Positions 9,637 to 10,158 of a stretch of DNA of 64,000 nucleotides are shown in pieces (position 1 is the first letter of the stretch; the number at the start of each line of letters is the position of its first letter). The stretch is from a bacterium (lineage in GTDB: Bacteria > Patescibacteriota > Minisyncoccia > Phycocordibacterales > VMGT01), in assembly GCA_030697645.1 (NCBI GenBank), contig JAUYPI010000006.1, positions 12,017 to 76,016 of the forward strand, given 5' to 3'. The notes beneath the pieces are model-generated. The model made no database searches. It saw nothing but the letters and a program-made list of their open reading frames with translations, and was not told where the DNA came from. Both the position numbers and the translations under genes were made by a program.

Positions 9637-9772
9637 TTAATTTTCAATGCTCAATTTTCAATCAATTTTCAATGACCCAATTTTCAAACACGACGTCGTA
9701 CCGGCGCCGTCATTAAGTCATTGAAACATTGAAAATTTATTGGAAATTGCAAAATTGAAAATTGAAAATTTC
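9637..9772. repeat. Family-1 palindromic element, copy 2
   Basis: Between rpmJ stop and rpsM ATG. Core CCCAATTTTCAAACACGACGTCG. Confidence 0.8.
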
Positions 9773-9777
9773 GTTCT

Positions 9778-10158
9778 ATGCGTTTATTCGGCATTACCAT
9801 TCCAGAGAAGAAGCGGCTCGATATCGGCCTCACGGCGATCTATGGGGTCGGACGTCCGCGCGCCGGAGCGGTTCTCCGGGAGGCAAAGGTAAACCCGGCG
9901 AAGCGACCGGCTGAGGTTAGTGCGGAAGACGAGGCGCGCATTCGGGCAGCACTCGAGAGCATCAAGCTCGAGGGCGAGCTGCGGCGGGATATAAGCGCAA
10001 ACATCAAGCGCCTCCGCGAGAGCAAATCGTACCGCGGCGTGCGCCATGTGCGGCACCTGCCGGCACGAGGTCAGCGCACGAAAACAAATTCACGCACCGT
10101 CCGCGGTAATGTGCGTAAGACCATGGGATCGGGGAGAAAAAAGGTGGAGAAGAAGTAG
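9778..10158 (+). CDS. rpsM: Ribosomal protein S13
   Basis: 126 aa. Canonical S13 sequence (GVGRPRA..., RGQRTKTNSRT). Confidence 0.9.
   Translation: MRLFGITIPEKKRLDIGLTAIYGVGRPRAGAVLREAKVNPAKRPAEVSAEDEARIRAALESIKLEGELRRDISANIKRLRESKSYRGVRHVRHLPARGQRTKTNSRTVRGNVRKTMGSGRKKVEKK

Follow-up and report, generated by a model that had tools for sequence, protein, structure and literature searches.

A candidate mobile palindromic repeat with heptameric arms in the intercistronic spacers of a Parcubacteria-like genome

The repeat described here, family 1 or F1, occupies intergenic spacers in a 64-kb stretch of bacterial DNA (the window: 64,000 nt of contig JAUYPI010000006.1, assembly GCA_030697645.1) and is best introduced through the small hairpin-forming sequences that resemble it most. 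The Correia elements of Neisseria and the enterobacterial ERIC sequences are bacterial MITEs (miniature inverted-repeat transposable elements) that become part of transcripts and fold there, and RNase III is known to act on Correia elements. The RNase III sites of phage T7 are unique sequences of ~20-30 bp in one orientation, with cleavage experimentally shown. REPINs are doublets of REP (repetitive extragenic palindromic) sequences that form hairpins and are mobilized by RAYT transposases (Bertels and Rainey 2011, PMC3116915). Heptanucleotide repeats have been described in cyanobacteria, as have GGGAATC repeats in Xanthomonas, some of them paired as inverted repeats (Rehm et al. 2015, PMC4692102), and polymerase slippage has been proposed as the source of heptameric repeats in general (PMC4692102).

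Like REP sequences and REPINs, F1 is an extragenic, multi-copy hairpin palindrome of ~100 nt; like a MITE, it is short (97-138 nt), non-coding and an inverted repeat over its whole length; and it displays the head-to-tail 7-nt periodicity of heptameric tandem repeats. With a probability of roughly 0.6, we read F1 as a dispersed, non-coding REPIN/MITE-like palindromic repeat that has colonized short spacers between co-directional genes. This reading rests on its presence in many copies and both orientations, its lineage-specific sequence, its sharing across divergent hosts, and the nesting and polymorphism of related hairpin modules. The source organism is an uncultured member of the Patescibacteria (Candidate Phyla Radiation, CPR), Parcubacteria-like in character; among species representatives, RpsM finds its best matches in Paceibacterota/Parcubacteria metagenome-assembled genomes, at identities of 64% or less. 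Positions 6395-14708 of the window are 100% identical to a public 8.3-kb contig, JAXMIX010000114.1 (GCA_034376905.1).

Shuffled sequence would be expected to contain the 9-mer TTGAAAATT 0.7 times; the window has 66 occurrences, grouped in ten clusters, each marking one intergenic copy of F1 with 24-30% GC in a window of 54% GC. Every copy runs from a left arm of AATTTTCAA-type repeats through a GC-rich center, CAAACACGACGTCG..., to a right arm of TTGAAAATT repeats; the arms are two inverted arrays of degenerate 7-nt repeats (AATTTTC and GAAAATT) around this half-palindromic tip. Autocorrelation of the arms reaches 0.58-0.61 at lag 7 (0.44-0.61 over lags 7 and 14) vs 0.35 for shuffled arms. All ten copies fold as long AU-rich hairpins (dG -22 to -46.5 kcal/mol; z -3.9 to -6.7 against dinucleotide shuffles), with stems of 27-57 bp that are mostly AU, are interrupted by internal loops and form one self-contained hairpin on either strand. 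Mean column identity across the ten aligned copies is 75%, and stop codons are present in all three frames in eight of them. The center is asymmetric in the same way throughout, one half reading CAATTTTCAAACACGAC and the other having diverged to ..CAATGACGGACGAC; because this derived asymmetry is common to all ten, they must descend from one asymmetric founder.

Eight copies are forward relative to transcription and two (copies 4 and 9) are inverted, aligning only as the reverse complement. Gaps to the next start codon are counted here from the last TTGAAAATT. Copy 1 (7584..7680, +) has a truncated right arm and lies between the gene for a 418-aa hypothetical protein (hyp418) and that for a 441-aa membrane protein, 9 nt before the ATG at 7690. 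Copy 2 (9636..9771, +), the copy named in the first-pass annotation, lies in the rpmJ-rpsM spacer, and positions 9772-9780, TCGTTCTAT, run from the end of its right arm to the rpsM ATG (9778; gap 7 nt). Copy 3 (10171..10308, +) stands between rpsM and rpsK (ATG 10315; 7 nt). The inverted copy 4 (10750..10887, -) stands between rpsK and rpsD (ATG 10910; 22 nt), with its end AGCACGAAATTT immediately adjoining the rpsK stop codon TAG, while copy 5 (11549..11673, +) begins 3 nt past the rpsD stop, with the rpoA promoter coming next (gap to the rpoA ATG, 78 nt). The rplM-rpsI spacer holds copy 6 (14174..14283, +), which has lost its central part (ATG 14291; 8 nt); copy 7 (14768..14886, +) is found between rpsI and grpE (ATG 14897; 10 nt) and copy 8 (15503..15638, +) between grpE and dnaK (ATG 15663; 24 nt). 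Farther along, the inverted copy 9 (34783..34908, -) is enclosed by a further outer stem in the tuf-rpsJ spacer (ATG 34950; 42 nt), and copy 10 (37484..37614, +) lies between rplD and rplW (ATG 37620; 6 nt).

These distances bear on what had been said of the locus before. The first-pass annotation placed the elements 3-25 nt before the starts of the membrane protein gene, rpsM, rpsK, rpsI, grpE, dnaK and rplW, and the measured gaps of 6-24 nt agree, the rplW start being the less secure; it placed them 20-70 nt upstream of rpsD, rpoA and rpsJ, which holds for rpsD and rpsJ and fails for rpoA. The start codons used match independent gene calls on the identical public contig, and those of rpsM, rpsK and dnaK also fit homologue N-termini or a canonical N-terminal sequence. 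Less certain are the starts of rplW and rpsJ, which would give N-terminally extended proteins.

Copies of F1 were also recovered from other genomes. A metagenome scan with the F1 core gave 20 matches, comprising eight true copies and 12 chance matches in coding DNA. The true copies come from contigs with 32-40% GC and align to the window copies over their full length, and their arms are of the AATTTTCAA type; their tip is a perfect 18-bp palindrome, AAACACGACGTCGTGTTT, of which the window copies keep only one half. They are found at der-pth, clpP-lgt, map-ruvX, HAD-eno (two contigs) and parA-parB junctions and beside a tRNA, and since these are varied housekeeping sites, F1 is not tied to ribosomal-protein genes. 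The sole low-GC contig checked by protein similarity, L092, comes by its enolase from a CPR organism, the best named matches being Ca. Pacebacteria (74%) and Paceibacterota (68%).

A different picture emerges from the closest relatives, found via ribosomal protein S4 and designated L102 (81% identity), L104 (67%) and L105 (60%). Both L102 and L104 have hairpins at the same junctions as the window: hypothetical-membrane protein, infA-rpmJ-rpsM, rpsM-rpsK, rpsK-rpsD, rpsD-rpoA, and after rpoA. Their arm repeats are entirely different from those of F1 (TTCGAAAT, CAAATGTCAAA, CAAAACT and CTAGGC; the CAAATGTCAAA-arm hairpin, for example, occupies L102:3225-3344 at the rpsM-rpsK junction), several retain the tip core, and one is nested inside another. 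In L105 the spacers between rpsM, rpsK and rpsD are short and hairpin-free, as are those at most of 80 other CPR rpsM loci. On a common lenient scale where shuffled sequences score 0.56, the window copies of F1 share an identity of 0.88 with one another and of 0.80-0.82 with the low-GC copies, vs 0.64-0.71 with the hairpins at the same junctions in L102, which are 0.85 identical among themselves. Since F1 is nearer to the low-GC copies than to its L102 counterparts, kinship of the elements does not follow kinship of the hosts.

Turnover can be followed at a single site, the HAD-eno junction, through five related genomes. The spacer is 51 nt without any element in L111, 87 nt with only three ACTTTAT units in L109, and 176 nt with F1 alone in L092. 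In L108 it is 318 nt, and F1, inverted relative to L092, is nested in an outer hairpin of AAAGTTA heptamers; L098 is identical to L108 across their shared 6,681 bp. The L107 spacer is the longest of the series (412 nt). L107 and L108 are 99.98% identical over 8.9 kb, and what sets them apart at this junction is a single 94-nt double-hairpin indel (L107:5599-5687) bordered by a 5-nt direct repeat, which is a clean presence/absence allele of a hairpin module. The polymorphism and host-independent positions expected of a MITE are thus seen in the HAD-eno series and the F1 identity comparison, respectively.

As a mobile palindromic repeat, F1 would spread by transposition in trans or by gene conversion. 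Its arms may grow through polymerase slippage of 7-nt units, with intrastrand template switching maintaining their complementarity. Once inserted, F1 would be co-transcribed with the operon as an intercistronic hairpin and could be tolerated there, as the hairpin loops the insert out and leaves intact the stop codon, the next start codon (one without a Shine-Dalgarno, SD, sequence) and a few unpaired bases. Its likeliest effect on expression would be punctuation by double-stranded RNA, as an RNase III target or a barrier to 3'-exonucleases; judged by their sequence, AU-rich stems of this length inside operons make either role plausible. Of the three roles suggested in the first-pass annotation, RNase III-type processing stems are thus the one that may hold.

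Several findings weigh against this reading. Pfam and NCBIfam reveal no transposase or RAYT-like gene in the window, and no target-site duplication is definable for F1, whose ends are AT-rich and palindromic. The part of F1 that is best conserved is the center and not the ends, whereas in a classical MITE the reverse holds. The flanking genes are co-directional for each of the 18 copies examined, an outcome with a chance of ~0.02 if 80% of junctions are co-directional. The low-GC CPR genomes that share F1 are only presumably distant from the host of the window. Nine of the ten window copies precede translation or chaperone genes (Fisher p=5e-4, for copies that are spatially clustered), and few junctions of these operons are without a hairpin of some family, be it in the window or in the relatives at 81% and 67% S4 identity; an intercistronic structure could thus have been selected for and not simply tolerated.

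Such selection is the substance of an alternative that we regard as possible, if unlikely: the hairpins would be selected intercistronic RNA elements that are cut by RNase III or block 3'-5' exonucleases, dividing the long transcripts of ribosomal-protein and chaperone genes into stable monocistronic units, much as the T7 sites do. Long, mostly AU stems with internal loops inside operons would suit this role, and the window encodes an RNB-family exoribonuclease. Nearly all junctions of the rpsM-rpoA-rpsI-grpE-dnaK and tuf-rpsJ-rplB clusters hold some hairpin, the two relatives retain theirs at the same junctions despite differing sequences, and the window copies are enriched at highly expressed genes. 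Against it, a comparison of sense with antisense folding showed neither stability nor G-U pairing to be biased toward the transcribed strand: of 29 hairpins, 16 are more stable as sense (Wilcoxon p=0.74), and six of the eight forward F1 copies fold worse as sense than as antisense. Because stability is strand-symmetric, the palindromy looks like a DNA-level property, not one tuned for mRNA. Covariation among the ten copies, with a double change in 1 of 26 pairs, is uninformative, as the stems barely vary. F1 also occurs in both orientations, most other Parcubacteria with the same gene order have short spacers without hairpins, the low-GC copies sit at ordinary housekeeping junctions, and indels distinguish near-identical strains, all of which count against selected RNA elements. 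A selected RNA role can coexist with a mobile origin of F1.

A more elaborate version, to which we give little credence, makes the intercistronic hairpins a selected part of gene expression in Parcubacteria that lack an anti-SD sequence, with the tip CAAACACGACGTCGTGTTTG recognized by a dedicated CPR protein. The looped-out spacer would then put the stop codon and the next SD-less start ~10-20 nt apart, and terminating ribosomes would re-initiate, or RNase III would yield near-leaderless monocistronic mRNAs. Interest would be high if the hairpins did belong to SD-independent gene expression.

The relation to translation initiation has been proposed in a simpler form as well, with F1 taking the place of the SD: either the AU-rich right arm would serve as a standby or S1 site, or the stem would position 30S or 70S ribosomes on an AUG 6-10 nt downstream. 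The observation behind it, that these genes have no GGAGG-type SD, is borne out by a motif scan, in which none of the ten F1-associated genes has GGAG, GAGG or AGGA within the 20 nt upstream of its start. For six of the eight forward copies the ATG follows after 6-10 nt, and the genome rarely uses an SD. Some Parcubacteria are without an anti-SD, the motif being present in only 48% of Parcubacteria 16S genes (Tsurumaki et al. 2022, PMC9297842); because this loss is published, SD-independent initiation in the group is already known. SD-less starts are, however, equally usual where there is no element. About 40 of the 50 window genes have no SD-like motif at the usual distance, among them tuf, rplB, rplC, rplQ, rplM, infA, dnaJ, trpS, PPDK and rpoA, all counted here as element-free, and in related Parcubacteria the element-free rpmJ-rpsM-rpsK spacers of 5-40 nt have no SD either. 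SD-lessness is a genome-wide trait and not a property of F1, and the idea of F1 as an SD replacement or standby site finds no support as a specific role.

Nor is the proximity to start codons specific. Twenty-five junctions were folded, which represent every hairpin family of the window together with the two nearest relatives and three low-GC contigs; no more than 11 nt separate the base of the stem from the start codon in 19 of them and from the preceding stop codon in 15, a difference without significance (Fisher p=0.36). A stop codon about as near as the ATG speaks against the ribosome-recruiting leader that had been suggested. The distances from stem to stop and from stem to start sum to about the spacer length of element-free relatives, and the nearness to the ATG is most simply explained by F1 filling short (10-30 nt) spacers. 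Furthermore, the right arm is base-paired, not single-stranded; the inverted copies and those before rpoA and dnaK are 22-78 nt from the start; and in L092, where the automatic enolase start is wrong, the true start is ~60 nt beyond the element. The 19 of 25 junctions in which the stem base lies 0-11 nt from the start would favor an SD-replacing role, but on balance it is very improbable.

Two side observations concern start codons in general. Among 35 genes with an ATG start, T stands at -1 in 25 and C at -2 in 14 (...CT ATG), whether or not an element is upstream, and this bias may be a Kozak-like context in an SD-poor genome. A good GGAGG-like SD precedes a few genes, mostly at 44-61 kb (starts 44740, 45238, 50574, 54684, 55705 and 60928); they encode hypothetical proteins, an SNF2-methyltransferase fusion and a DNA glycosylase, and housekeeping genes are without an SD. 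The cluster could signal foreign origin or two classes of initiation signal.

It seems slightly less credible still that the arms are arrays of DNA sites for proteins, whether internal promoters and UP elements or sites for a nucleoid or regulatory protein that would read the TTGAAAA heptamers or the palindromic tip. TTGAAA does resemble a -35 hexamer, the low-GC 18-bp perfect palindrome is operator-like, and across four arm types no other part is conserved as well as the tip. Yet a minimal 9/12 sigma-70 match lies on the sense strand in only two of the ten copies, and sigma-70 hexamers spaced by 16-18 nt do not recur at one position from copy to copy. The TTGACA-16-TATAAT promoter reported to follow copy 5 before rpoA is indeed there (11693..11720, +; 12/12, the sole such match in 7.4-18 kb), and it lies outside F1: the end of copy 5 is ~20 nt upstream of its -35 hexamer, and the adjoining stretch, the usual site of an UP element, is not AT-rich. 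A similar promoter-like sequence, read by eye, follows the hairpin in L103, L104 and L105. The proposed promoter or UP-element array is not supported by these results, and operator-like sites have to contend with the single half of the tip palindrome left in the window copies and with arms that are wholly different between close relatives.

That the hairpins are transcription terminators or attenuators between cistrons can practically be set aside: they are stable, follow stop codons and precede the rpoA promoter in the window and three relatives, but the stem base is AU-rich with no U-tract after it, a terminator scan was negative at every F1 copy, a canonical GC-rich stem with T9 exists near 28990-29040, and a stop at every junction would need a promoter per gene, which is not seen. 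Ordinary intrinsic terminators do exist in this genome. At 28869-29068, a perfect 20-bp stem is followed by the GC-rich stem and T9 just mentioned, preceded by an A-run, and this terminator may work in both directions; a perfect GACGTC-rich hairpin is present at ~50.2 kb (50176-50216). Across the whole window, Rfam gave no match at gathering thresholds and, in E-value mode, only sub-threshold matches to miRNA-precursor-like hairpins; ARAGORN found no tRNA or tmRNA.

F1 is accompanied by other hairpin families of similar build. F2, with AGCTTTT/AGCTGTT heptamer arms, occurs at 13324-13386 (hyp185-rplQ), 17597-17710 (dnaK-dnaJ, a copy holding a nested GC-rich hairpin) and 35319-35441 (rpsJ-rplC), with a partial copy at 26314-26346, just upstream of fusA. 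F3, a 228-nt hairpin of about -63 kcal/mol between the FIST and histidine kinase genes on the minus strand (31133..31360, -), has the same tip core as F1 (CAAACACGCACGTCGTGTTTG) and different repeat arms, which implies one core with several arm types; the same is observed in L102 and at L101:7044-7171. F4, with ACATTTG heptamer arms, lies in the rplW-rplB spacer (38031-38120). Autocorrelation peaks at lags 7 and 14 are 0.49-0.73 across F1, F2, F3, F4 and the families of the relatives, vs 0.35 when shuffled, and two low-GC hairpin families have an 8-nt arm period. Long GC-rich hairpins of -77 and -99 kcal/mol also stand in spacers at 25724-25888 and 32597-32790; the one at 25745-25845, downstream of trpS, shares 83% identity with a hairpin that follows rpsD in L105 (L105:1650-1752), which by sequence points to another dispersed palindromic family at non-orthologous sites.

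From Pfam and the gene calls on the public contig, the first cluster reads hyp418, 441-aa membrane protein, infA, rpmJ, rpsM, rpsK, rpsD, rpoA, hyp185, rplQ, rplM, rpsI, grpE, dnaK, dnaJ; fusA and then tuf, rpsJ, rplC, rplD, rplW and rplB follow downstream. The 418-aa (6264-7520) and 441-aa (7690-9015) proteins have no convincing family, with weak matches to GlxA and PilM only; they stand in the usual place of secY, adk and map, and their position upstream of infA is conserved in many Parcubacteria loci. Between rpoA and rplQ lies hyp185, a 185-aa open reading frame (ORF; 12766-13323) that begins 3 nt past the rpoA stop and has no Pfam or NCBIfam match; in L104, rplQ comes directly after rpoA, with a hairpin in between. 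A 750-nt gap (36060-36809) separates rplC from rplD and contains only short ORFs, including two for small hydrophobic peptides on the plus strand, and on the minus strand what resembles a truncated lipoprotein signal peptide; the gap may be what is left of an insertion that decayed within the S10 operon.

Three other connections were considered and rejected. A restriction-modification role for the GACGTC tip is at odds with the abundance of the site elsewhere, where it is not depleted (29 observed vs 21.6 expected), and for a phage vector, the F1 core has no match in IMG/VR viral contigs. The third was a link to TIGR-Tas systems, whose arrays consist of tandem ~36-nt dual-spacer units beside a Nop-domain Tas gene (PMC12045711); F1 consists of dispersed single hairpins. 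The only Tas-like match in the window is a 676-aa protein (47885-49915) with a weak hit to the NCBIfam model for the TIGR-Tas RNA-guided endonuclease (E 2e-4; 21 bits, the cut-off being 100). It has no PDB match and no tandem array nearby, and the hit is probably not significant.

The genomes of CPR bacteria are tiny and streamlined, and hairpin repeats of 100-200 nt in their most highly expressed operons are unexpected. The architecture, in which heptamer arrays are inverted about a conserved tip, one core goes with several arm types and modules are nested, appears new for this group; in the searchable literature on CPR with SD, palindromic or hairpin intergenic repeats, or MITEs, no prior description of such a family was found. 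The hairpins sit exactly at cistron boundaries, which makes them relevant to start choice and the handling of polycistronic mRNA in anti-SD-less Parcubacteria. There is also a practical caution: these repeats yield spurious ORFs and wrong start-codon calls and coincide with at least one short-read contig end, that of a public contig of the same organism (L106, window 185-7633), which terminates inside F1 copy 1 and suggests that F1-type repeats can break assemblies.

How, then, does F1 compare with the systems introduced at the outset? The likeness to REPINs is extensive: both are non-coding, extragenic, multi-copy imperfect palindromes of ~100 nt that form one hairpin, occur in both orientations, often lie in operons, and belong to lineage-specific families evolving as populations within a genome. 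The arms of F1 are, however, degenerate 7-nt arrays instead of two REP units of 20-40 nt; there is no conserved GTAG-type terminal tetranucleotide, the conserved block being the central CAAACACGACGTCG; and the host is a CPR bacterium in which no RAYT or other transposase was seen in 64 kb. Correia and ERIC elements likewise are small, AT-rich inverted repeats between genes, with long hairpins and presence/absence polymorphism among strains, and a 5-nt flanking repeat is found at the related module that distinguishes L107 from L108, not at F1 itself. F1 departs from them in having no definable target-site duplication, variable ends and a conserved center, and in its unusual density inside ribosomal-protein operons. 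To our knowledge no insertion sequence (IS) matches F1, and a parent IS element with F1 termini was seen neither in the window nor in the examined loci.

With the heptameric repeats F1 shares the 7-nt unit and a place between genes that are mostly co-directional, and in both cases close relatives vary extensively in the length and sequence of the repeats; F1 differs in that its arrays always form two inverted arms around a GC-rich tip, are AT-rich and not G-rich, and are dispersed as a unit. The likeness to the RNase III sites of T7, as long imperfect intercistronic hairpins near the next start codon, is a functional analogy only. Palindromic intergenic repeats are a known kind of element, and what is unusual in F1 is its build and its habitat at the ribosomal-protein cistron junctions of a largely SD-less genome.

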